Sequence record: MT446408.1
Strand: one strand, 5' to 3'
DNA length: 64,000 bases
Source of the DNA: Escherichia virus TH35
A model generated the notes under the pieces. That model was not told where the DNA came from, searched no databases, and saw only the letters and a program-made list of their open reading frames with translations. The position numbers and the translations under genes are program-made. Shown here piece by piece: positions 20,122 to 64,000 of the stretch; the stretch's first letter is position 1, and every line of letters begins with the position of its first letter.

Positions 20122-20154
20122 ATTATAATCTATAAGGAGTCTATAAGCAATATT

Positions 20155-27213: not shown

Positions 27214-28752
27214 TTAGATAAGAACGTCACGACCTTCAACGCGACGCACAGCATCATCTTTAGAGTAGATTAGCGTGTATGTTGCATAGTATTCGGTGCG
27301 TCCATCGGAAGTGGTTTCAGTATCAAAATCTACAGTCAGCCAGTAACCGATAGTTTCAACCTGTCGCCAAGCAGTGTTGTCACCGGAAGTTTGCGTGATG
27401 TATTGTTTCTGAATCTCAGTCAGCGCCTTGCCAACAGAGATGGTGCCGTTTACTTTTGCGTTATCCACAGCAACCTGAATCATGGCTTGTACAGTCGCTT
27501 TCCCTTCTTCGTTAGCAGGCACGCGACCCAGATTCAAGAACATGCTAAACAGCTGAGATGTAATAGCAGACTTTAGCCACATTTCGTTGGCATAAGTGTT
27601 CATATCAACTGCTGCAGTTGAACCGCCCATCAATACGCCGCGCTGGAAGAATGCCAAGGTTTGTCCGGCCTGCTGAGTAGCACCGATGTAGTTCGCACGG
27701 TTTTGATCAGCAGTATCTGCGCGAGAGTCAGTTGAAACAGTCACGTTGCGAGTATCAAACTGATAATACATGTAGTTTTGAGTCGCATTTACAGTATTAT
27801 AGTTTGTTGCCGCGAGGATTTCAGCAGGTGCTTGGTCGATGTAATCGTTGGCAAGGTTAGTTGCACGAATCATCATGCCAACGCCTGAGTACCCTTTCAG
27901 AGCGGTGTAGTATGACCCGATATTGGCGAACGAAGTCGAGAATAAATACATGTACATATTATTCTGCGAATGAGTCCACGCTGCCACAGCGGTAATTTCT
28001 TCCAGAGTTCGGTCAGCCCCAGCAAAAAGGAATGAGCCGAAGTTGTTGGAGATTTCCACAGATGCTGCGATTGCTTCTACCGGACTTGAAACGCCCTGGC
28101 CTGCAACGGTTACAGTGCCAGTGGTGGTCCAACCTAATGCTTGAGACGGGTCGGTCGGTTGGCCTGTGACATTGATAGACAGATTGCCTGCACCAGCGGT
28201 CGACGGCGCTGCTTCCAGCGTGAACTGCTGAGTATTAGCGTTCCAATACACTTCTGCATCAGCAAGTGCAGGCACCGACATGCCACCTTCTGCTGCAAAT
28301 TTAGTATTGATTGCCGTTTCCAGAAGTTCAGCCACATTTGCCAGACTTGTTGCCGCTGAAAGGTTAATTGCGTCAGTCAGGTAGTCTGTGCCGTCATAAG
28401 TGATGCTTAAAATAGCGCCAGTAAACGCTTGAAACGTAGCAAGCACTTTAGGCTCAGTATCACCGATTACCATCGCTGGAATCGCAGTTGAAACAATACG
28501 CGAGAAGCTGATTGAATCAGGCGAGTTAATTTGCTTGCTGATGAATCCAAAATATAATGCTGCGCGCTTATATTCTTCGGAAGAATAACCGAAATATGAT
28601 CCAACAGCATCAGCCGTTGAAAATTCTGCTACAATGCCTGGCGGCAGAACTGTATTAGAAGTCATGACGCGAAGCGACAGTTTGCGAACTGCAACAGCCG
28701 CGCCTGCTCCGACCCCTGATACAATTTTAATATAACGAGATTGACTGATCAC
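27214..28752 (-). CDS. Tail sheath protein
   Basis: ORF track 512 aa; size and position upstream of tube gene. Confidence 0.6.
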   Translation of the reverse strand: MISQSRYIKIVSGVGAGAAVAVRKLSLRVMTSNTVLPPGIVAEFSTADAVGSYFGYSSEEYKRAALYFGFISKQINSPDSISFSRIVSTAIPAMVIGDTEPKVLATFQAFTGAILSITYDGTDYLTDAINLSAATSLANVAELLETAINTKFAAEGGMSVPALADAEVYWNANTQQFTLEAAPSTAGAGNLSINVTGQPTDPSQALGWTTTGTVTVAGQGVSSPVEAIAASVEISNNFGSFLFAGADRTLEEITAVAAWTHSQNNMYMYLFSTSFANIGSYYTALKGYSGVGMMIRATNLANDYIDQAPAEILAATNYNTVNATQNYMYYQFDTRNVTVSTDSRADTADQNRANYIGATQQAGQTLAFFQRGVLMGGSTAAVDMNTYANEMWLKSAITSQLFSMFLNLGRVPANEEGKATVQAMIQVAVDNAKVNGTISVGKALTEIQKQYITQTSGDNTAWRQVETIGYWLTVDFDTETTSDGRTEYYATYTLIYSKDDAVRRVEGRDVLI

Positions 28753-34460: not shown

Positions 34461-34564
34461 CCACCCTCAAATAAGTATTGTGTATTATATCTAATGAAAA
34501 AAACTTAGGCAAACAATAATTATGGTTTGAATATGTATAACAACCGATATAGCCGCGCCTTAAT

Positions 34565-36807: not shown

Positions 36808-39183
36808 TCAACCTTGCTTCGGTGAATTAGTAGGATTATTGAGTGCTCCGTATGCTTGAGAGCAATCACCCTTCAACCACTCCTTGAATGAGTTCACATC
36901 TAATTCGTGGATTGAGTCGAATCCGTTCCAACCGTTACCAAATGATGCTTGATAAGCTTCTTTCGCTTCTTCTGCTGAATCGAATCCAAGCATACACTTG
37001 TGTTCATCAAACTCGCCAGAGTAGTTATCGTTTTGGTTCACGATAAAGACTTTCGGCGACTTCAGATTTGGACCCACAAAGCAGTCGACTTCATCACCGT
37101 CTGCGCCCTTGGTGCCCTTGATGAATCCGTAGTGGTGCGGCATCTTCACGGCCCATTCACCGTCAAGGCTGTTTCCTCTACGAATGCTGTTTCGCGGATT
37201 CTCAATGCCAAGAATCATTCCGTGCAACTTCATCTTAGGTAATGATGCTGCGTCCATTTTACCCACGTTGTGGCGTAAGTTGACGACGTGTCCTTTAACG
37301 CTTGGAAGGGTAGACGGTTGCACCGACCGTGAATCTTTTTGAGGGTCAAAATCCACATCCTGACCTTCTTTCAGGTAGTAATCCGCAATACCCTCCAGCC
37401 CTTCTTTCAACTGCGTTAGGACATCAACCTTATGGCTTGATTCATCATCGGTATCGTCCATGTTGATTTCGACAGGCGCTTTGTCAGGGTTTTCCGCCAA
37501 CTCACCACGCGCGGCACCCTCTGGCATAATACCTGTTTCGCTATAGAACTGGCCGCCCATCTTAACGACATCAGCTTTCGCCTGTTCAATATCGGCCTTA
37601 CCTTGCAGGACTTCACCAGCAGACTTGCCAAGCAATGCCATATTCTCTGGAGACATCCCTGGGGTTTCTTCTGCCGCGTCTTCCGGCAGACGGTTGTAGC
37701 CGCTGTTTTTGTCGTCTTTGATGCGGTCGCGCTCTTCATCAGGAGAAATGACGCCAGCATCAATAAGAGTTTTGCCAGTGTTGGCTCGCTTATCATTGAT
37801 TTCTGCAAGTTGAGTAGCAGTAAGTGAGCCAACTGGTTCCCATGCAACCTTAACATCGACATCCACCCCTTCTGATTTGAGAAGGATTTTGTAATGGCGG
37901 TCGAGAATTTTTGTCAGGTCATGCTGCTGGCACGTTTCCAACTCTTCGTGATAGCTGACCATCTCGAATTCACCAGTGGCGTTAAAGCCTTTTGGCGAAG
38001 TCCCAAGCAGTTTGGTCGACGGAACTTTTGCGATTGCGGCCACAAGCTGGTACTGGTTCATGATGATGCTGTCGAAGTCTGACAAGTTGATGTCAAACTG
38101 GTCCATCTCTTCTTTTTGGCCAAGCACTTTGACTGCATAGTTGTCGCGGTACTTGATCCACATCATCAGACGTTCTGCAAAAGACCGCTCATTGGCAATA
38201 GCCTTGTCAACGTCGGTCCGCAGCGTCGTTGTACGCTTGGACATCGCCAGCAATGGCGCTTCGTTGGCGGTACGTTCAGCGGCATAGATGCGTTCATAAA
38301 TCTGCTGAGTCAGAGGAATGCCGCCGTAAATATAAGTCGGCTTGAGAATATCAGCTGGCTCATCGTTGCGCAAGATTATGAGGTGGCTGCGATGATAACG
38401 TTGTCCGCTGATTACCCAATATTCTGGGTCATAGAAGTGCTGTGATGCAGGGTCTGCTGTGTTTTCAGACGTCAGAAACGGCATCATCCAATAAGGGTCA
38501 ACCTGAATGATTCCCTTATAAGACCCCTTTGTCACACCATCAATGTTAAAAGGCTTGCTGTAATATTCTGGGTCATCGCTACGCACATCAAATATGATGA
38601 CGCGGATACCAAAAATATTTTTGAATCGTTCGGCTTCAACTAAGTGCTCTTTGATATTAAATTCTTTATCAATTTGCTTTAGGCGTTCGCTTGCCTGTAC
38701 TGACAATTCTGACTCAGAACTGGATTTGACTTCCCAGCCTTTACGGACTGCATCGCGGCCTACCATGGAACACGCTTTGTTCACCAGCCAGTGCTGCGCG
38801 ATGATTGCGCAAGCTTGATAGCCGATGAATGACTGTGACAAATACCAGTTTTGAAGTTGAATAGGTACTGTGTATGGGTTGACCTGCCCTTCTGAACTGA
38901 TGTTCTTCAAGGCATTATCCATAACTTTTTTGGATACTGTTGCGGAATCGACTGAACGACCTTTTATGATAGCAACACCGTCGCCATTAATATCAGGCTC
39001 ATACAAAGGGAAGTCATCAACCGTTTTAAAGGTAGGTCGATTGCTTTCAGTCTTTTCCCAGCGTTGACCGCTGCCGCGCCTTTCAAGGCGTTCAAACGGT
39101 GCCAATGGGTCGCCTGGCGGCATCTCCGCTGGTTCGGCTTCTGGTTGCGTCTTCTCCCAGAGTTTTATGCCAAGAATTTTCAT
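36808..39183 (-). CDS. Portal protein with C-terminal inorganic-pyrophosphatase-like domain
   Basis: ORF track 36808-39216 (TTG); start moved to ATG 39183 (RBS AGGTGG); position next to large terminase; C-terminal D-G-D-E-V-D-C signature. Confidence 0.75.
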   Translation of the reverse strand: MKILGIKLWEKTQPEAEPAEMPPGDPLAPFERLERRGSGQRWEKTESNRPTFKTVDDFPLYEPDINGDGVAIIKGRSVDSATVSKKVMDNALKNISSEGQVNPYTVPIQLQNWYLSQSFIGYQACAIIAQHWLVNKACSMVGRDAVRKGWEVKSSSESELSVQASERLKQIDKEFNIKEHLVEAERFKNIFGIRVIIFDVRSDDPEYYSKPFNIDGVTKGSYKGIIQVDPYWMMPFLTSENTADPASQHFYDPEYWVISGQRYHRSHLIILRNDEPADILKPTYIYGGIPLTQQIYERIYAAERTANEAPLLAMSKRTTTLRTDVDKAIANERSFAERLMMWIKYRDNYAVKVLGQKEEMDQFDINLSDFDSIIMNQYQLVAAIAKVPSTKLLGTSPKGFNATGEFEMVSYHEELETCQQHDLTKILDRHYKILLKSEGVDVDVKVAWEPVGSLTATQLAEINDKRANTGKTLIDAGVISPDEERDRIKDDKNSGYNRLPEDAAEETPGMSPENMALLGKSAGEVLQGKADIEQAKADVVKMGGQFYSETGIMPEGAARGELAENPDKAPVEINMDDTDDESSHKVDVLTQLKEGLEGIADYYLKEGQDVDFDPQKDSRSVQPSTLPSVKGHVVNLRHNVGKMDAASLPKMKLHGMILGIENPRNSIRRGNSLDGEWAVKMPHHYGFIKGTKGADGDEVDCFVGPNLKSPKVFIVNQNDNYSGEFDEHKCMLGFDSAEEAKEAYQASFGNGWNGFDSIHELDVNSFKEWLKGDCSQAYGALNNPTNSPKQG

Positions 39184-39345
39184 TGTTAACGCCACCTGAC
39201 AGTGAAAGGGAATCAATCTATATTATAAATATTCATGTGTTTGTAAGCAAATGATATGTATGGTGATCATAAATAGTTCATAAAATATTTTGCTTTTGTA
39301 TCATTTTGAGTTATATTTTAGTTAACCAAACGAAAGGAGATTGAA

Positions 39346-39762
39346 ATGAGCACAACAATTGTATTTGTCGTCTTGAATAAAGGCGAAGTCGTTAACGTAT
39401 GTGAATATGAAGAACTGGCAAAGGCCACTGCTGCGCGATACGAAGGTGCTATTATTGACCCGTGGATTTTAGATGCGCGCAACGTCTTGCAGGCGACTTT
39501 GGATGAGTGGTTGTTGGGCCGCAAGGTCTATCCAGTAGACAACATCGACTCAATTCAAGGTGAAACAGTATACTTTGAAGATGAATGCGTTCGCGGAATC
39601 GGCAAATTTATGGGATTGTGCCCATCTTCATCCAAAAATAAATTCTATCGTATTCAAGTTGAAGAAAACGATATGTTTGATAAAGTCACGCGCTCGATTG
39701 TTCCTGGCGGCGGAACTCCAATCTTTATGGCAGAATCAGACATCAAGGGGATTATCAAATGA
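39346..39762 (+). CDS. Hypothetical protein (138 aa), opposite strand to flanking structural genes
   Basis: ORF track; RBS AAGGAGA upstream. Confidence 0.6.
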   Translation: MSTTIVFVVLNKGEVVNVCEYEELAKATAARYEGAIIDPWILDARNVLQATLDEWLLGRKVYPVDNIDSIQGETVYFEDECVRGIGKFMGLCPSSSKNKFYRIQVEENDMFDKVTRSIVPGGGTPIFMAESDIKGIIK

Positions 39763-39998
39763 GAACTTTAACCGAACTCGATGTTTTGAAAGACGTTGCA
39801 GCCGCGCTGGGCGTTGAAGTCTCTGAAAAGTCGACACTGGGTGCTCTGCGTCGTGATTTACTCGAAGCCGTCGACCGCAACGATTTTGATCGTAAGTGTT
39901 TGCAAAAGAAGATTCGACAGGCAGTAAGGGCGGGTAAGCGATTCCGTGCCAGGTCGTTTGCCGCAAGAAAACTCGACCTTCAGCACGGAATGCTTTAA
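39759..39998 (+). CDS. Hypothetical basic protein (79 aa)
   Basis: ORF track; ATGA overlap with upstream gene. Confidence 0.55.
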   Translation: MRTLTELDVLKDVAAALGVEVSEKSTLGALRRDLLEAVDRNDFDRKCLQKKIRQAVRAGKRFRARSFAARKLDLQHGML

Positions 39999-40001
39999 TT
40001 G

Positions 40002-41462
40002 TTAAAGGTTAGAGAAGAAGCCGGATGCTGCAACAATTGGTTTCATCAACGCCATGATTGCTGCGTCCGCTTTGTTAGGCGATTTGACTCCACGCTTTGC
40101 CATATCCTTTTTCGATTCAACTTTAAACTTACCAAGCACAGACGTGTCTTTGCGCGGCGCTGACATCTCAAAAAGAAATGTCTCAATTTCTTCCGCAGAC
40201 CAAGCAGGAATCCCAAGTTCTGGAATGCCGTCTGTGTCGATGGAAATCAGCTCATCAGTCGGGTATACAGCCTGCCCTGTTGCATACTCATATGTCTTCC
40301 TGAATCGTTCGGCAATCTCAGTCCATTTTTGCGCTTTTATGTTTGCGAAATGGTCTTTATTGAGTATTTCAACGTGTGGTAACTCAAGGAAGACGTCATC
40401 AGGATCATCAACAGCACCTTGCGCGTTGAACGCATTAAATTCGATTCTTGGGAATGTTGGATTTTCATGGATTGCATACTCATTAAGCTCATCAAATTTT
40501 GAACCAGCAAATGCACCAACACCGATGGCGTCATAGGTAATTGATGCGCCGAATGTTAATGCATCTTTCCAAACTCCGCTTGCGGACTTAAGCAATTCAT
40601 CTTCCAGACCTTCCCATGTCTTGATGCCGCGCAATACGTTGCCCGTGACAAATGCTGTGGCGTTTAAGTCGTCGCCGTCGTCTGCCACGTCAAAGCCTAT
40701 ACGGTTAGACCCTGACAAGCTCCATCCCAACGTAGGGTGTTTGTGGAGGTTTAGCGCGGCCTTGACGAATGCACGGTTGATGACCGACTTGTCGCCGCCT
40801 GTCTTCGGTACTCCGCCATAAACGTGTTCTGCCTTTTTCGGGTCGCGCTCATACATGCCAGCGATAACGTCCAGCATTGTTTGCGACAAGAATGGATTGT
40901 CCTGCCAGTTAATCTTCTTAACAATGGCATTTTTAGGCGGTCGCATAACAAAGTTCTGGTAGACGAAATCAGCCTCTTCATCAGGGTTAAATATGATCCA
41001 TATTTCGGACCCTTCCTTACGAATTGTCGGCTCAATAATATCCCACTGCTCTTCAGTCAGCGCGTGCGCTTCTTCAAGCCAAAGAACGTCAACACCTTCT
41101 GTTGATTTGATTTCGTCAACGTTGCGTGCGATACCGTAAAATAAGAATTCAGATTTTGTTCTTTTGTGTTCAATGGAGTTCTTTAATAAGTTGAACTCAT
41201 CTTTGAAATCAGAAATTTCTATTTTGTCTTTTAATAGCGTATATACTGATTCAGAAATCTTGTTCTGGAATTGTCGAACGCAAAGGAATTTTAATTTAAA
41301 ATTTGCCGCCAAATAAATAGCAAAACCAGCGGCATCATGCGATTTGGAAGATGCACGACCGCCGTATATAACTTTGTATCGCGCTTTCGTCTTCCAGACT
41401 TCTCTTAAAGCAGGATTCAACTGGTACATGACTTTCCAATTATGTGTTAATATTTTATTCAT
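40002..41462 (-). CDS. Terminase large subunit
   Basis: ORF track 486 aa; Walker A-like VIYGGRASSKSHDAAG; nuclease-type C-terminal half. Confidence 0.9.
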   Translation of the reverse strand: MNKILTHNWKVMYQLNPALREVWKTKARYKVIYGGRASSKSHDAAGFAIYLAANFKLKFLCVRQFQNKISESVYTLLKDKIEISDFKDEFNLLKNSIEHKRTKSEFLFYGIARNVDEIKSTEGVDVLWLEEAHALTEEQWDIIEPTIRKEGSEIWIIFNPDEEADFVYQNFVMRPPKNAIVKKINWQDNPFLSQTMLDVIAGMYERDPKKAEHVYGGVPKTGGDKSVINRAFVKAALNLHKHPTLGWSLSGSNRIGFDVADDGDDLNATAFVTGNVLRGIKTWEGLEDELLKSASGVWKDALTFGASITYDAIGVGAFAGSKFDELNEYAIHENPTFPRIEFNAFNAQGAVDDPDDVFLELPHVEILNKDHFANIKAQKWTEIAERFRKTYEYATGQAVYPTDELISIDTDGIPELGIPAWSAEEIETFLFEMSAPRKDTSVLGKFKVESKKDMAKRGVKSPNKADAAIMALMKPIVAASGFFSNL

Positions 41463-41470
41463 ATTATAGT

Positions 41471-41499
41471 TTGCTTGCGACAGCTATATCAAGTAAAAT
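41471..41499 (+). promoter_or_regulatory. Candidate sigma70-like promoter (TTGCTT-N17-TAAAAT)
   Basis: Read from sequence; lies in divergent intergenic region between terminase and + strand genes. Confidence 0.3.
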
Positions 41500-41539
41500 T
41501 ATGATTCCAGCTTAGTAGTGGATAAAGGATGATCTTTTC

Positions 41540-41568
41540 GGCCAGATTCTTTCTGGCCATTTTTTTTA
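41540..41568 (+). terminator. Terminator-like hairpin (GGCCAGA...TCTGGCC) followed by T8, immediately upstream of an RBS
   Basis: Read directly; unusual position 5' of gene 41582. Confidence 0.5.
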
Positions 41569-41581
41569 TCAGGAGTAAATC

Positions 41582-41812
41582 ATGGCCCTAGTAAATATTC
41601 AACTCACTCCATCTTACACTTCCGTTCTTTCTGTTGCTGAAAACGTATCAGGCGCACTTATTCAAGTTCGCGGCGGTGCCGCAGAGATCTGTTTCGAAGA
41701 AAAAGCCGATGACAAGTTGATCGGCATCGCAGTTGTTGGCACGGTCACAATCCCGCCAGGCGTTGAGATTTTCGCGAAAGGAAGCGGCACATTAGTCGTG
41801 TCTTCTCACTAA
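41582..41812 (+). CDS. Hypothetical protein (76 aa)
   Basis: ORF track; RBS AGGAG upstream. Confidence 0.55.
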   Translation: MALVNIQLTPSYTSVLSVAENVSGALIQVRGGAAEICFEEKADDKLIGIAVVGTVTIPPGVEIFAKGSGTLVVSSH

Positions 41813-41901
41813 TCATTTGCCATGGACGGCATAAATTCACAAAAAGTTTGCCTTTCTGAAACTCTGCGTTATAATCATATTAACTCAAAACCGGAGGTAA
41901 T

Positions 41902-42117
41902 ATGAAACTCATCGACCGTGCCATCAAAGCCATTGATAACCACTCCACCGCGCTTGCTTTCGTGATGGGATTTTGTTTCACTGCTGCGTTTGGCGACGTT
42001 CACACATTCAAGTCTGTCATCTTGTGCTGGTCCATCTGGTCCCTTATTTCTCTGGTTTTGATTCTTCCGATGACGTGGCTTGTTCTTACTTGTCTTGAAT
42101 CTCAAGGTGAAGACTGA
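41902..42117 (+). CDS. Small multi-pass membrane protein (71 aa), holin candidate
   Basis: ORF track; two to three hydrophobic segments. Confidence 0.45.
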   Translation: MKLIDRAIKAIDNHSTALAFVMGFCFTAAFGDVHTFKSVILCWSIWSLISLVLILPMTWLVLTCLESQGED

Positions 42118-42338
42118 TGAGACTATCAATCAAAGAGCGGGCAAAGCGACCCAAAAGGAGTGAGCCAAAGGCCAAATACATATGCGTTGGCGGACCGTTC
42201 GACGGTCAAGCGATGTGGCTTTCAAAATCTAATCCATCGACGGTTGAGTTCAGCCTTCATGGAATGCGCGGCAGGTATCTGCTAAACAGAGAAACAAGCG
42301 GCAGCACATTTGTGGAGTGGAAAGAAAATGGCAAGTGA
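42117..42338 (+). CDS. Hypothetical protein (73 aa)
   Basis: ORF track; ATGA overlap. Confidence 0.5.
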   Translation: MRLSIKERAKRPKRSEPKAKYICVGGPFDGQAMWLSKSNPSTVEFSLHGMRGRYLLNRETSGSTFVEWKENGK

Positions 42339-42561
42339 ATTATCAATCGAAGTACCGAAAGAATGGCTGGATAAGGCATACGCAGATTCTGTAAAAGAAC
42401 TTGCTGTTGTGCTTGGAATCGAAAATGAGTTTAACGTTCAACTTCAATTCCTAAAAGATACTCTTCAAATCAAAGAGAATAGAGAAGCTGGCGGCGGTGC
42501 GCCTTTGGCTCTGGCAATAATCTATGCGGGATTAATTTTGAAGTCTGGAGGCGAACTGTGA
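42310..42561 (+). CDS. Hypothetical protein (83 aa)
   Basis: ORF track. Confidence 0.45.
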   Translation: MWSGKKMASELSIEVPKEWLDKAYADSVKELAVVLGIENEFNVQLQFLKDTLQIKENREAGGGAPLALAIIYAGLILKSGGEL

Positions 42562-42757
42562 ATCGTTGGTGCAGTTGGAAGTTGAAACGTCTCGCCTGGG
42601 CCAATGCCGCCAATTCTGCTGGCCCAATCACCGCTGGTGTTGGGTCGATATGGGACGGCGAAGGACGTTGGGACTCTCTGTGTGGCACGCGCCTATTCTT
42701 TCGCTTAAAATAACATTCGCCCTTCCCGATATGGGAAGGGAATTTAAAGAGGTTATC

Positions 42758-43099
42758 ATGAACAATACTTTATCACAACTGCTAATCTGGACAATTGCTG
42801 CTATCATCGGCACCGTTATTATGATGTCGAGTGCAAAGGCCGATACGGATATTTGCGGCAGACTTATTTCTGAGAATGGCGAGATTTATTATGGCAACTC
42901 AAAAGGCGATTATATATCGCCTGAGGTTTGCGCTCAGAAGAAAGCAGAAATGCAAAAGCAGTATCATGAAGATCAATCTATATCTCAAGCCGCGCTGATT
43001 GAATTAAGTATATCAGCCATCATCTTTCTAATCGTTTTTATGCTCATTATTAAACCAGATAATGGCAGCCACCGTCATATTCCTCTCAAAAGAAATTAA
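42758..43099 (+). CDS. Membrane protein with N-terminal signal/anchor and C-terminal transmembrane segment
   Basis: ORF track 42566-43099; start moved to ATG 42758 with RBS AAGAGG. Confidence 0.45.
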   Translation: MNNTLSQLLIWTIAAIIGTVIMMSSAKADTDICGRLISENGEIYYGNSKGDYISPEVCAQKKAEMQKQYHEDQSISQAALIELSISAIIFLIVFMLIIKPDNGSHRHIPLKRN

Positions 43100-43137
43100 G
43101 GTTATAATACGGTTGTCGACAAAACGAGGACCGTAAA

Positions 43138-45480
43138 ATGCCAAGGCTAATATTCAAAAACAACTTTGAGGTCGCGCTGGCTCAACCAACGACGACTTCA
43201 GACACCACAATCACAATTCGCTCAGGGTCGGGCTTTCCGACTTTGGGCGCAAACGAGCGTGTAGTGGCGACAATCGTCGACGCTGCAACAGGCCTCCAAT
43301 TCGAAATCGTCACAGTAACAGCCGTGGTTGGAAACGTCCTGACCGTGCAGCGTGCTCAAGAAGGAACTGCAGCGCGTGCATGGGCTGCTGGTGACATGCT
43401 TTCCATTCGAACTACTGCCGCGACTTTGACGGGTACTGTCCGAAACTTTGGCGCTGTTCCATCCGGTATGAATTTGAACGCTCTTACTGGCAGCTGGTTT
43501 GGGCAATATTATCAGAACTCTGACGGCGCAGCCTCTTCTGGGTTGAACTATCCTGTTGAGCAGGCAGGAGTCCTAGAGGTGTTGCAAACAGGAGTATCGA
43601 CCGAAAGTTGCATCCAAAAATACACATCATATTCCATCAACAACACTTACCAAAGAAGATTCAATGCGCAAAATAGCACATGGTCTCCTTGGGTGATGAT
43701 TTATTCAGAATCAAGCGTCATACCTGTGTCCAACGGCGGCACGGGTCAAACAACCATTCAGGGGATGAAGTCCGCGTTTGGATTCGGTACAGTTGCTGAT
43801 CAGAATGTCGTCCCTACTTCCATGGGCGGTACGGGCTCAGCAGACAATGCACAAGCATGGCTGAATATTCGTCCACAAGGGTCAACGCCGCTCGCTGGTG
43901 ACCCAGTTAACGATTATGATGCCGCGACCAAGCGTTGGGTTGAAAACTTAGTTAACACAGGCACCATTGGTCCAAGCATGAACGGTGTCATGAACTATGG
44001 CGTTGGTGATTTTCACTTACGCGACAGTCGTGCATATATTCAACCGTATGAAGTCGTTGCTGATGGGCAGTTATTAAACCGCGCTGACTGGCCTGAACTT
44101 TGGTCATATGCGCAAATGCTGTCGCCTATTGCAGATGCTGACTGGCTGGCGGACCCGCAAAAGCGCGGAAGATATTCCTTGGGGAATGGCACCACCACAT
44201 TCCGAGTGCCAGACCGCAACGGCGTCCAGACAGGGTCAATAAAAGAGCTTTTCTGCAGAGGTGATGGCGGCAACCCGACAAACGATGGAATGGTGTATAA
44301 TGCTGCTGCGCCTAACATACTTGCCTATACGCCTCACACAGTGCTCACCGCTGCCAGTGCAAAAGGCCAAGTGGCCACTGATGGGTCTTTCACATCAACG
44401 ACATCCACTAGTGGTGTTTGGCCTACGTCCGGTGGCGAAGGCCTGTATGCGAATATCCGTTTCGACGCTTCCCAATCATCTCCATTGTATGGTCGATACG
44501 GAATCGTGGACAACCTGATACCAAAGAACTTTATTGGCGTTTGGGTGATTCGTGCATCGGGTGGATTTGTTGCCGCGAATACGTCTTGGAGTGTTATAAA
44601 TGGTGATGGCACAAGACCGCCTGGCGGGACGAGAGTTGAATCAGGGAAAGTAAGCGTTGAATACAAGATTGGAACTTCCATTGAAGCGCAAGGAACGGTT
44701 TACACATCAGCAACGATGGGTGGTTCATACTCCACCCAGTTGTCCGTAAAAAACGTCACTGCAGGTAAAGAAAAAGACATCAGCTTGACTGATGACGGTC
44801 TATTGTGGTCTGACCGATTTGCGGCACGTTACGGAACATTGATGTCATGGGCTGAAACAGGTTCAAAGTCAGGCACCTTCTCGATGACGAGACAGGCACT
44901 TGGTCAAAACTATGGCTTTAACAGCCTTATCAGCGGTAGTCAATCTGTTAATACAGGATACGCAACTACTGTTCACCATGGCATGATTCACAACAACAAT
45001 GGAAGTTTTGCGCAAGCTACGTGGATTGCTTCTGGTGATGATGATGCAAAGTATCAAACAAAGATGCAAATCCAGCCTAACGTAGAGGATGTATTTTTTT
45101 CAGTATCCGTTCCAGGCTCTGACAGCTTCTTTACTCTTCAAAAGAATGCCATCTCTGATGAGAATTTGAAGCATGACATACGACCAGGAACGGTTGAAAA
45201 AGCATGGAGCAACCTTTCATCGCTGGAGTATGTAACGTTCATATACAACAATGATGAAAAGGAAAGGATAAGAAGGGGTATTATCGCTCAACAGGCAGAG
45301 ATTATTGACCCTTTGTATGTTAAGACGATTAAATTCTATCCGAGTGAAGGTGTCGAAGTTGAACAAAAACAACTTGACACGACACCTATGCTTTTGGATA
45401 CGATGCACGTGGTGCAGGAGTTGATGAAAAAAGTTGAATCCCTAGAGGCAGAGATAGCCGCGCTGAAAGCAGCAAAATAA
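43138..45480 (+). CDS. Tail fiber/tailspike protein with C-terminal intramolecular chaperone (peptidase S74-type) domain
   Basis: ORF track 780 aa; C-terminal NAISDENLKHDI motif followed by coiled-coil. Confidence 0.7.
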   Translation: MPRLIFKNNFEVALAQPTTTSDTTITIRSGSGFPTLGANERVVATIVDAATGLQFEIVTVTAVVGNVLTVQRAQEGTAARAWAAGDMLSIRTTAATLTGTVRNFGAVPSGMNLNALTGSWFGQYYQNSDGAASSGLNYPVEQAGVLEVLQTGVSTESCIQKYTSYSINNTYQRRFNAQNSTWSPWVMIYSESSVIPVSNGGTGQTTIQGMKSAFGFGTVADQNVVPTSMGGTGSADNAQAWLNIRPQGSTPLAGDPVNDYDAATKRWVENLVNTGTIGPSMNGVMNYGVGDFHLRDSRAYIQPYEVVADGQLLNRADWPELWSYAQMLSPIADADWLADPQKRGRYSLGNGTTTFRVPDRNGVQTGSIKELFCRGDGGNPTNDGMVYNAAAPNILAYTPHTVLTAASAKGQVATDGSFTSTTSTSGVWPTSGGEGLYANIRFDASQSSPLYGRYGIVDNLIPKNFIGVWVIRASGGFVAANTSWSVINGDGTRPPGGTRVESGKVSVEYKIGTSIEAQGTVYTSATMGGSYSTQLSVKNVTAGKEKDISLTDDGLLWSDRFAARYGTLMSWAETGSKSGTFSMTRQALGQNYGFNSLISGSQSVNTGYATTVHHGMIHNNNGSFAQATWIASGDDDAKYQTKMQIQPNVEDVFFSVSVPGSDSFFTLQKNAISDENLKHDIRPGTVEKAWSNLSSLEYVTFIYNNDEKERIRRGIIAQQAEIIDPLYVKTIKFYPSEGVEVEQKQLDTTPMLLDTMHVVQELMKKVESLEAEIAALKAAK

Positions 45481-45487
45481 TTCACTC

Positions 45488-45512
45488 AAGGCGCTGAAAA
45501 GCGCCTTTACTT
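45488..45512 (+). terminator. Rho-independent terminator (weak T-run)
   Basis: GGCGC-TGAAAA-GCGCC hairpin after fiber gene stop. Confidence 0.45.
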
Positions 45513-45943: not shown

Positions 45944-46339
45944 ATGATCATTGATATTGAAAAGGCGCTTAAGCGCGAACTGACGCCAGGTGCAACTCCT
46001 GGTGAAGAGGCTTATTACCGGCCCAAGCCGCAACGCACTAATGATATTCCGGTCTTCAAGCGTACAGTGAATAAAAACGGTCAGCGGTCGCGACCGCGCT
46101 CTATCCGGTCCGGTGAGAAGCTGAAAACGATTCGCCAGTGTCTACAACGACTCGAAATCATGGGTTGTCGCGCTTATATCGACCCTGATGGAAAGGTTCT
46201 GGTGAGAATTGGCAATAGTACACATCTACAGGACGGATTGCCCTGCGGCGAATCCAGACCCATAGCCAAGACCGACCGTGTGGCTACTGGCCGCGAGATT
46301 GAGGAAAGTTGGTTGGGTGCTTTCTTATTAAAATATTGA
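45944..46339 (+). CDS. Hypothetical protein (131 aa)
   Basis: ORF track. Confidence 0.55.
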   Translation: MIIDIEKALKRELTPGATPGEEAYYRPKPQRTNDIPVFKRTVNKNGQRSRPRSIRSGEKLKTIRQCLQRLEIMGCRAYIDPDGKVLVRIGNSTHLQDGLPCGESRPIAKTDRVATGREIEESWLGAFLLKY

Positions 46340-47079: not shown

Positions 47080-47105
47080 GGGTCGCTGTGGCGGCCCTTT
47101 ATTTT
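47080..47105 (+). terminator. Rho-independent terminator
   Basis: GGGTCGC-TGTG-GCGGCCC hairpin followed by TTTATTTT. Confidence 0.55.
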
Positions 47106-54993: not shown

Positions 54994-55071
54994 AATCATT
55001 TCTCCTTTGCTTGATGAACTAAGTATAATGCAGGCAAATAAAAAGGCAAGCATTTAGCTCACCTTTTTGAA

Positions 55072-56527: not shown

Positions 56528-56612
56528 GATTCACCTCACTTGTTAGTCTTGATGAAAAGAGTATAAGTATTGATAAAAGAAAAGGCAAGCATTTAGCTCA
56601 CCTTTTTGATAT

Positions 56613-58668: not shown

Positions 58669-58874
58669 AGCGAGTCCTTCGGGCCGCAGTAGCGCCCGTC
58701 CAGGTAGCGGTCGTATTGGATTAAAGCGAATGTCTTCAATGAAAGGTTACGGCGCTTAAACAGGTGACCCGTTGATGGATTCTGCTCGTGCGCCGTTGGA
58801 TAAAGGCGTGACAGGTAGTGGATGAGGACTTGTAAAGCCCTACGTTGCTTTGTTATTCTCCCTTGTGTATTCAT
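58665..58874 (-). CDS. Hypothetical protein (69 aa)
   Basis: ORF track; weak RBS. Confidence 0.4.
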   Translation of the reverse strand: MNTQGRITKQRRALQVLIHYLSRLYPTAHEQNPSTGHLFKRRNLSLKTFALIQYDRYLDGRYCGPKDSL

Positions 58875-62673: not shown

Positions 62674-62731
62674 AGATCACCTCTGCTTCAGTTCATAAAA
62701 TGATTATAGTTGCTAGAAAAATAAAAGCAAA

Positions 62732-63814: not shown

Positions 63815-64000
63815 CTTTCTTTCCTTCGGTGATCAATACCTGCAGTATAATATTGAGTGATACAAAGTCAACAATATTTACCATTTAGTTCACAATTTCG
63901 ATTTACTTTGCTTTATACTATATCTGCAATTATACTATCAGAAAATATTTCCGCACTAACAAAGGTCGCCTGAAATGAACGAAAAAGAGACGAAGCAACG

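Follow-up and report, generated by a model that had tools for sequence, protein, structure and literature searches.

Why would a virulent phage place a strong terminator-like hairpin between a promoter and the gene which that promoter faces? The question is raised by positions 41463–41581 of a 64,000-nt stretch of DNA (the whole stretch being referred to below as the window) from Escherichia virus TH35 (MT446408.1), an ECML-117-like myophage of the genus Wifcevirus whose locus is 99% identical to that of ECML-117 (megablast). A first-pass annotation of the window had noted here a plus-strand promoter candidate, a hairpin with a T8 tail and the ribosome-binding site of gene 41582, and had proposed that this arrangement yields either a ~55-nt small RNA or a transcriptional attenuator of the downstream plus-strand genes. 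The element at 41540 appears, judging by its sequence, to be a real, conserved, promoter-proximal intrinsic terminator, that is, an element of a known kind. Its best explanation, and one that we consider probable, is a constitutive intrinsic (Rho-independent) terminator in a phage 5′ leader, which would free an RNA of ~60 nt and let a minority of polymerases read through.

Wifceviruses are virulent myoviruses of ~68 kb, distantly related to the Pseudomonas phages of the genus Pbunavirus (large terminase, TerL, 64% identical), which are their nearest studied relatives. They are under development against E. coli O157, and their replication is reported to be unusually fast (bioRxiv 10.1101/2024.09.12.612763). 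The locus offers a compact, testable handle on transcriptional control in Wifcevirus: where the structural and tail-fibre operons meet, two divergent promoters overlap next to a leader terminator that is conserved. The hairpin lies in a divergent control region that separates a minus-strand structural block, an operon of ~28 kb which starts with the large terminase gene and ends with the endolysin gene and a strong terminator (12901–12882), from a plus-strand block on its right, composed of small genes followed by the gene for a T-shaped tail fibre (43138–45480).

Anatomy and conservation of the terminator hairpin

All the elements listed in the first-pass annotation were confirmed where it had placed them, on the plus strand. 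The −35 hexamer TTGCTT (41471–41476) is followed, after a 17-nt spacer, by the −10 hexamer TAAAAT (41494–41499); we refer to this promoter as P+1. The hairpin GGCCAGA-TTCTT-TCTGGCC (41540–41558), with a 7-bp stem containing five G-C pairs and a 5-nt loop, starts 40 nt past the −10 hexamer on the same strand. It is followed by an A (41559) and by T8 (41560–41567), the U-tail in which the 3′ ends of a short RNA are expected; 3 nt further lies the Shine-Dalgarno (SD) sequence AGGAG (41571–41575), and the ATG codon of the gene is at 41582. Stem, loop and tail fall within the ranges expected of intrinsic terminators, namely, a G+C-rich stem of 5–14 bp, a loop of 3–8 nt and a U-tract of at least six residues within 0–2 nt of the stem. 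The hairpin has a folding energy of −12.1 kcal/mol (z = −4.2), which was equalled by one of 200 shuffles, and its palindrome pattern is expected by chance 0.12 times per window.

Terminator-like sites showed no excess when a loose consensus was applied to the 38–45 kb region (7 found versus 6.8 expected), whereas an intermediate scan returned 16 sites versus ~5 in shuffles. The strict scan, which called for a run of at least six Ts preceded by a hairpin with a folding free energy of −6 or lower on either strand of the window, yielded just two sites in the 128 kb of both strands, 41540 being the stronger of the two and the sole one with at least seven Ts. The strong sites of the intermediate scan (2576, 9812, 12007 and 47080 on the plus strand, 12901 and 51354 on the minus strand) lie directly behind gene stops, which indicates that the phage uses canonical intrinsic terminators. 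The site at 41540 is the exception, being preceded by a promoter and not by a gene.

The conservation of the hairpin is that of a paired structure. Across an alignment of 11 distinct Wifcevirus sequences, on which all within-genus counts of variability are based, none of the 14 positions of the stem arms varies, whereas all five loop positions do (TTCTT, AATAA, TTTTT, TTATT and TTTTTT; Fisher P = 9e-5). Third-codon positions of the terminase gene, which provide the neutral rate, are variable in 95 of 255 cases (37%), compared to 5 and 2 of 256 for first and second positions, respectively; against this rate, the invariance of the arms has a P value of 0.0015. The T-tract is T7 or T8 throughout the genus. 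Invariant arms around a freely varying loop imply selection for the pairing of the stem but not for the loop sequence, as is characteristic of a hairpin that acts as a structure in RNA or DNA, and this pattern excludes a chance origin. The body of the leader between the predicted start and the hairpin (41506–41539) is also little changed, with 3 of 34 positions variable (binomial P = 2e-4 against the neutral 37%), but we give this figure little weight because nearby regulatory noncoding DNA is similarly conserved. In the promoter core, 5 of 49 positions vary, four of them in the shared spacer.

Beyond the genus, the comparison set consisted of the Pantoea phages Kyle and PA1 and the metagenomic contigs L018 and L098 (TerL 75–80% identical), the latter two being the only additional Kylevirus-like loci recovered in scans of metagenomes and IMG/VR. 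All four have the same layout upstream of the terminase gene: an overlapping divergent promoter pair, a leader of ~50–60 nt, a hairpin, A+T7 and an SD sequence. The minus-strand promoter reads TTGAAA, TTGATT or TTGATC-N18-TATAAT (Kyle, PA1 and L018), and the plus-strand promoter, TTGATT-N17 followed by TAAAAT or TAATAT, occupies the same place as P+1 (Kyle and PA1). The hairpin itself, GGTGGACAG-loop-CTGcTCCACC, is followed by the A, T7 and, immediately, GAGAGG and ATG. When the stems of the two genera are compared in register from the stem base, pairs 1 and 2 are as in Wifcevirus, and pairs 3–7 are changed on both sides yet remain paired, so that five of the seven comparable pairs have been replaced in a compensatory manner; pair counts obtained with MAFFT and RNAalifold on the combined hairpins were discarded because the stems were misaligned. 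Among the Kylevirus-like sequences, the block comprising hairpin, tail and SD sequence is 90–98% identical, with the differences confined to the loop, whereas their leader bodies score 65–68% in a scheme that gives ~52% for unrelated sequences; the Wifcevirus leader body is not conserved there. No third stem variant was detected in the metagenome and IMG/VR scans, and no such hairpin was found in the equivalent region of Pbunavirus and other relatives with 55–64% TerL identity. From this distribution, the promoter-proximal terminator is long established in the Wifcevirus-Kylevirus lineage and has been preserved as a structure, with a leader body that is lineage-specific.

A different kind of element occupies the corresponding place in several IMG/VR contigs (L023–L025, L028 and L066; TerL ~62% identical), which carry long A/T-rich palindromes, such as AATTATTTTCAGATTTTTTGAAAATAATT, upstream of the terminase gene. 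The palindromes directly precede a TTGCCT-type promoter, at the position taken by the leader terminator in Wifcevirus, and may serve as an operator or an insulator.

The hairpin has been flagged before. The GenBank records of the Wifcevirus phages WFC (MK373777) and WFH (MK373776) already have a ‘terminator’ feature placed precisely over the hairpin, labelled ‘putative transcriptional terminator, -14.10’ in WFC, and leave the upstream promoter unannotated. These features stem from the ARNold program, as used by Korf et al. (2019; PMC6563267), and the value of −14.1 kcal/mol in WFC provides independent support; the text of that article, as far as it was searched, makes no mention of the position of the hairpin in a leader, of the insertion/deletion (indel) behind it or of its conservation in Kylevirus. 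Thus, what stands in the records is an automatic prediction at the same locus, offered without an explanation. A bidirectional function was rejected, because on the minus strand the hairpin continues into GAAAAGATC, with no T-run.

Two back-to-back promoters

The first-pass annotation had further held that the region must also contain the promoter of the large terminase gene on the other strand, and this proved to be the case. A sigma-70-type promoter for the terminase gene and the late structural operon, TTGATA (41492–41487)-N18-TATAAT (41468–41463), matches the consensus at 11 of 12 positions, has a predicted start at ~41456 and keeps both hexamers invariant in the 11 Wifcevirus sequences. 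It occupies the same 40 bp as P+1 (41471–41499; predicted start ~41506), in a back-to-back overlap: the −35 hexamer of P+1 sits between the −10 and −35 hexamers of the minus-strand promoter, and its −10 hexamer lies just beyond the minus-strand −35. With predicted divergent starts only ~50 bp apart, a polymerase bound at either promoter should exclude one from the other.

P+1 is one of a set. High-ranking intergenic matches to a position weight matrix (PWM) made for this analysis share an unusual −35 hexamer, TTGCYT, and the resulting promoter class, TTGCYT-N16-17-TAWAMT, has 10 matches in the window versus 0.21 expected, a number that no shuffle reached. Eight of the 10 are intergenic and point at a gene, with an SD sequence and an ATG behind them. 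Members of the class also share an A/T-rich upstream block resembling CATAAAATAGT, which P+1 possesses. The hexamers of P+1 are invariant across Wifcevirus. Where P+1 departs from the class is downstream: the distance from the −10 hexamer to the ATG is 82 nt, compared to 25–41 nt in those other members that have a gene behind them, and P+1 is the sole member with a hairpin and U-tract in its leader. Taken together, these features mark P+1 as a credible promoter with an exceptional leader. A second plus-strand candidate in the same stretch, GCGACA-N17-TATGAT (41477–41505), was rejected, its −35 hexamer not being conserved (GTACAA or GTGCAA in relatives).

The class serves early-looking and structural genes alike. 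On the minus strand, its members precede the portal (39222–39250), protease (34484–34512) and baseplate (20122–20150) genes and early genes (55022–55049, 56560–56588 and 62703–62730); another member is found on the plus strand at 63908–63936. One further plus-strand match (28531–28558) falls inside the tail-sheath gene in the opposite orientation and may act as an antisense promoter.

To the right of the hairpin lies a second plus-strand promoter, P+2 (TTGCCT-N16-TATAAT, 41848–41875), which heads the small-gene and tail-fibre operon extending from 41902 to ~47049. It is itself a member of the TTGCYT class, matches 10 of 12 consensus positions and is kept in all relatives. The proposal that the terminator controls the downstream plus-strand genes does not hold in this form, because only gene 41582 intervenes before this independent and stronger promoter.

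A conserved unit with exchangeable cargo

Gene 41582 (41582–41812, plus strand; 76 amino acids) is an accessory gene carried by a segment of ~262 nt (41569 to ~41830) that is either present or absent and includes the SD sequence, the gene and a weak hairpin, the left breakpoint coinciding with the end of the T-tract. Among 28 Wifcevirus GenBank records, on which the counts of gene presence are based, the segment is found in eight and missing from 20, in which BLAST matches end at 41566–41569; in turn, the 39000–45500 region matched 35 phage records, nearly all from Wifcevirus phages of Escherichia and Shigella (megablast). All 28 records, including the 20 that lack gene 41582, keep both promoter and terminator. 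Hence, the conserved unit consists of promoter, leader and terminator, and is not a regulator of that particular gene. The presence of the segment is independent of the similarity of its flanks and its breakpoints are identical in two sequence sub-lineages, which indicates that it spreads by recombination. Between the window and Eco4M-7, the gene differs by 28 synonymous and five nonsynonymous codon changes, with 27 of 37 differences at third positions, as expected of a real coding sequence, which nevertheless appears to be dispensable. No homologues were found outside Wifcevirus and no family was assigned in PHROG or Pfam. One cluster of homologous proteins (P0004) is named from an E. coli assembly (BO117_RS13665), which probably represents a phage contig in a draft bacterial assembly, since the leader is absent from complete RefSeq E. 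coli genomes.

In phages without the gene, P+2 follows ~20 nt past the terminator. In Kyle, the terminator is followed by genes for proteins of 301 and 85 amino acids, a second terminator and a TTGCCT promoter. The slot just past the T-tract can thus be described as a tolerated insertion site with a natural cargo series of none, a 76-amino-acid gene, or 301- plus 85-amino-acid genes. The similarity between the 76-amino-acid protein and the 85-amino-acid protein of Kyle is weak (E = 1e-4 over 18 residues in a pairwise comparison, with no recovery by tblastn) and is not relied on here.

A probable short RNA rather than an RNA switch

Between the predicted start of P+1 and the hairpin lies a leader body of 34 nt, unique in the window, that would consist of a small 5′ hairpin (41506–41522) followed by an A/U-rich linker. 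In the whole leaders of six phages (the window, WFH, WFC, Kyle, PA1 and L018), the terminator stem has a pairing probability of 0.98–1.0, and no antiterminator fold competes with it, that is, no alternative helix touches either arm. By inspection, no conserved leader peptide is encoded on either strand, single-base indels among relatives shifting the small frames. Searches of the whole window against Rfam at the gathering threshold and of the locus at E ≤ 10 produced no family match; the best sub-threshold score was 19 bits versus 55 required, and the scores of 16–19 bits obtained for RyhB and MicA are due to the hairpin and U-tail alone. There is no room for an aptamer in 34 nt. Thus, although the locus resembles the trp, pyrBI and T-box leaders in that an intrinsic terminator separates the promoter from the first gene, it differs from such attenuators and riboswitches in lacking a mutually exclusive antiterminator helix, a conserved leader peptide, space for an aptamer and an Rfam match. 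Of the two outcomes considered in the first-pass annotation, the short RNA stands, an RNA of ~55–62 nt being the expected main product of a terminator inside a 5′ leader, and the classical attenuator falls.

The best explanation and the points against it

Under the explanation that we favour, host RNA polymerase would initiate at P+1, at ~41506, and copy the 34-nt leader, the 7-bp G+C-rich hairpin and U8. The majority of the complexes would be released in the U-tract, yielding a ~60-nt RNA in which an A/U-rich linker joins a 5′ hairpin to the terminator and U-tail, whereas the minority that read through would produce the mRNA of gene 41582 and continue into the P+2 tail-fibre operon. In the read-through mRNA, the hairpin leaves the SD sequence free. 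As no fold competes with the terminator, read-through would be a fixed leak or be set by a trans-acting factor, rather than by an RNA switch. The unit persists regardless of its cargo, i.e., none in 20 records, the 76-amino-acid gene in eight, and the 301- and 85-amino-acid genes in Kylevirus, and its job is therefore probably that of ending rightward transcription. It would stop transcripts leaving the shared divergent control region towards the right and leave the downstream operon to P+2 alone, while P+1 would share, and compete for, the same 40 bp with the promoter of the late operon.

Comparable elements have been mapped in other virulent phages. ONT-cappable-seq has uncovered RNAs arising by premature termination in 5′ untranslated regions (5′UTRs) of phiKZ, PAK_P3, YuA, LUZ19, LUZ24 and the Pbunavirus 14-1 (PMC10914365); across six Pseudomonas phages, Putzeys et al. 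reported 42 terminators within 5′UTRs and 29 noncoding RNA (ncRNA) candidates (PMC10914365). For instance, at T102 of phiKZ, >90% of transcripts are aborted to give a 71-nt RNA (PMC10914365), and similar cases are known in 201phi2-1 (PMC11512511). As in the locus described here, the terminator directly follows a phage promoter and precedes the first gene, it is conserved within the genus, and some cases lie upstream of tail genes. The Wifcevirus sequence has the layout of such a 5′UTR RNA (predicted start ~41506, end of the T-tract at 41567, SD sequence at 41571, a unit of <250 nt), with the difference that the dominant short RNA and the minority long transcript have been mapped in those phages and are predicted here. 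Unlike in the Pseudomonas phages, the unit persists with three different downstream cargoes, one of them being none. The equivalent intergenic region of Pbunavirus lacks the hairpin, so the Wifcevirus element is not a homologue of the 14-1 case. What was known before is, accordingly, the flagging of the hairpin in two records and the existence of leader terminators and 5′UTR RNAs in other virulent phages. The promoter class, the compensatory change of the stem across genera, the independence of cargo, the lack of an RNA switch and the overlap with the late-operon promoter are new.

Several points weigh against this explanation. A C-A mismatch at the base of the stem in the window leaves an unpaired A between stem and U-tract, which may reduce the efficiency of termination; in some relatives, the A after the stem pairs with an upstream T to form an eighth pair. 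The −35 hexamer of P+1 agrees with TTGACA at only three of six positions, which is why P+1 was missing from the list of a generic sigma-70 scan, and the PWM ranks it 37th in the window. Purifying selection on gene 41582 is odd for a gene behind an efficient and unregulated terminator, P+1 being its sole upstream promoter on the same strand, across the terminator. The low variation of the leader body (3/34) is more than a plain terminator needs, but comparable noncoding stretches nearby make this observation weak either way. Finally, no transcriptome of a Wifcevirus or Kylevirus was found, so the start site, the termination and its efficiency are predictions.

Alternative explanations

It is possible, if on balance doubtful, that the hairpin is there to insulate the control region from the left, with its site behind P+1 being incidental. 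A plus-strand promoter at 39291–39318 (TTGCTT-N16-TATATT) precedes two genes (39346–39762 and 39759–39998) that end 3 nt from the terminase stop, and transcripts from it would run antisense through the terminase gene: there is no terminator between the convergent genes, and no plus-strand terminator-like site of any strength from 39998 to 41540. The convergent arrangement recurs in Kyle, with a 4-nt overlap, and, where gene 41582 is missing, the terminator stands ~20 nt ahead of P+2, as an insulator would. However, Rho, or a collision with transcription of the late operon, would probably halt an untranslated antisense RNA of 1.5 kb short of 41540, and insulation leaves unexplained why the terminator is located downstream, and not upstream, of a conserved promoter. 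Such a role can coexist with constitutive termination of P+1 transcripts. The two plus-strand genes are in themselves peculiar: they lie inverted within the minus-strand late operon, with the terminase gene on one side and the portal gene on the other, and neither direction of transcription has a terminator there. Head-on transcription at 39291–40002 seems unavoidable.

Alternatively, the ~60-nt RNA might itself be the product, that is, a trans-acting, probably Hfq-binding small RNA (sRNA) that pairs with host or phage mRNAs, with gene 41582 hitch-hiking behind it; we consider this unlikely. The predicted transcript has the architecture of enterobacterial sRNAs, with a 5′ hairpin, an A/U-rich single-stranded linker, a terminator hairpin and a U-tail of at least six residues (U8). 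Within the genus, the leader body hardly varies (3/34), and the unit is kept in the 20 records with no gene behind it. There is also precedent, both in StxS, an RNA from PR′-tR′ (PMC7547250), and in the 5′UTR-derived ncRNA candidates conserved within phage genera (PMC10914365). Yet, the leader body is not conserved in Kylevirus, even among Kyle, PA1 and L018, in contrast to the 90–98% identity of the block behind it. In the phage genome, the leader has only chance-level antisense matches of 9–10 nt, none longer than 10 nt and none at a translation start; a double match at 58797–58823 is inside an open reading frame (ORF), away from its start. The RNA has no Rfam match, nor a host homologue, the leader giving no BLAST match in 5,426 complete E. 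coli genomes. Regardless of its function, the short RNA is worth considering when Wifceviruses are annotated or engineered.

A more ambitious proposal, which we regard as improbable, is that P+1, leader and terminator form a control device for the late programme. P+1 and the terminase promoter would be mutually exclusive, firing of P+1 would set the firing of the 28-kb structural operon, and timing would come from the abundant short RNA or from a phage factor that acts on the conserved leader. Because of the terminator, each firing of P+1 would then cost just a 60-nt RNA. Such a device would represent a Q-less analogue of the lambda PR′-tR′ in a virulent myovirus with a reported latent period of 3–5 minutes. 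If either the RNA or the competition between promoters were regulatory, lambda-like promoter-proximal termination would be extended to virulent phages; otherwise, the locus would be one more leaky leader terminator.

A genuine PR′-tR′-type switch, in which constitutive P+1 transcription is stopped at the hairpin until a phage antiterminator renders RNA polymerase resistant to it, so that gene 41582 is switched on and the tail-fibre operon enhanced late in infection, appears quite improbable. A promoter-proximal terminator ahead of late-type genes, such as the tail fibre gene at 43138–45480, is a hallmark of Q-type control, and the lambdoid PR′-tR′ makes the 6S RNA, a by-product that was turned into a regulator, StxS, in Stx phages (PMC7547250). 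The likeness extends to the layout, with a promoter, at once an intrinsic terminator, and late genes behind. In addition, a gene under purifying selection lies directly behind the terminator, and the hairpin has no RNA-encoded bypass, so any regulation would need a trans-acting factor. The predicted RNA is ~60 nt long, compared to 194 nt for the lambda 6S RNA. No candidate for the factor emerged: Pfam searches of the 55 small non-structural ORFs detected no Q, N, other antiterminator or sigma family, only DUF7307, DUF7501, DUF6879 and a weak Gemini_AL3, a result that leaves room for a novel antiterminator protein, and none is annotated in the curated genome of Bas99. Nor was a qut-like pause element found. 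The only nearby −10-like hexamer, TATGAT (41500–41505), is upstream of the predicted start of P+1 and would hence fall outside the region of a pause element, and it becomes TGTGAT in relatives. Furthermore, unlike in lambda, the phage is virulent and the downstream operon owns the strong promoter P+2.

Very improbable, finally, is that the hairpin does not terminate in vivo and instead stabilizes a 5′UTR, its U-tract acting as a ribosomal-protein-S1 translation enhancer: the U-tract is 0–3 nt from the SD sequence in both genera and the hairpin does not occlude the latter, but 20 Wifcevirus records keep hairpin and T7 with no SD sequence or gene behind them, a G+C-rich stem against 7–8 U is the defining terminator signal, and protective stems are normally located at the extreme 5′ end, where the leader already has one.

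Annotation of the flanking genes and other hairpins

Both the start codon of the terminase gene and the annotation of Kyle across the hairpin need correcting. Translation from the terminase promoter cannot begin at the first ATG of the ORF (41462), which directly adjoins the −10 hexamer of that promoter. DNA homology to Kyle stops at 41429, and TerL of all relatives, including Kyle and Pbunavirus, aligns from the methionine encoded there, which places the gene at 40002–41429 on the minus strand. The resulting 475-amino-acid form is annotated in six records (WFH, WFC, Mansfield, FEC19, SP13 and Bas99), and a 486-amino-acid form in ECML-117, Eco4M-7 and Ro157lw. In Kyle (L010, MN038177; 3262–4261), GenBank has a minus-strand ORF, KYLE_22 (74 amino acids), that crosses the leader hairpin, and the next plus-strand gene is annotated from 3530; the sequence supports a plus-strand ORF of 301 amino acids from 3356 (phrog_11600), with its SD sequence GAGAGG directly behind T7.

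A role of the 41540 hairpin at a pac site, a cos site or a genome end was rejected, as it lies ~9.3 kb from the starts of the WFH and WFC records and, by inference, as far from the genome end. For these two phages, Korf et al. (PMC6563267) report terminal repeats of 3.7 kb. Strong terminator-like hairpins are found at 47080–47097 on the plus strand and at 46097–46077 and 51354–51336 on the minus strand, and extrapolation from the coordinates of the WFH and WFC records would put the 3.7-kb terminal repeat between those at ~47.1 kb and ~51.4 kb.

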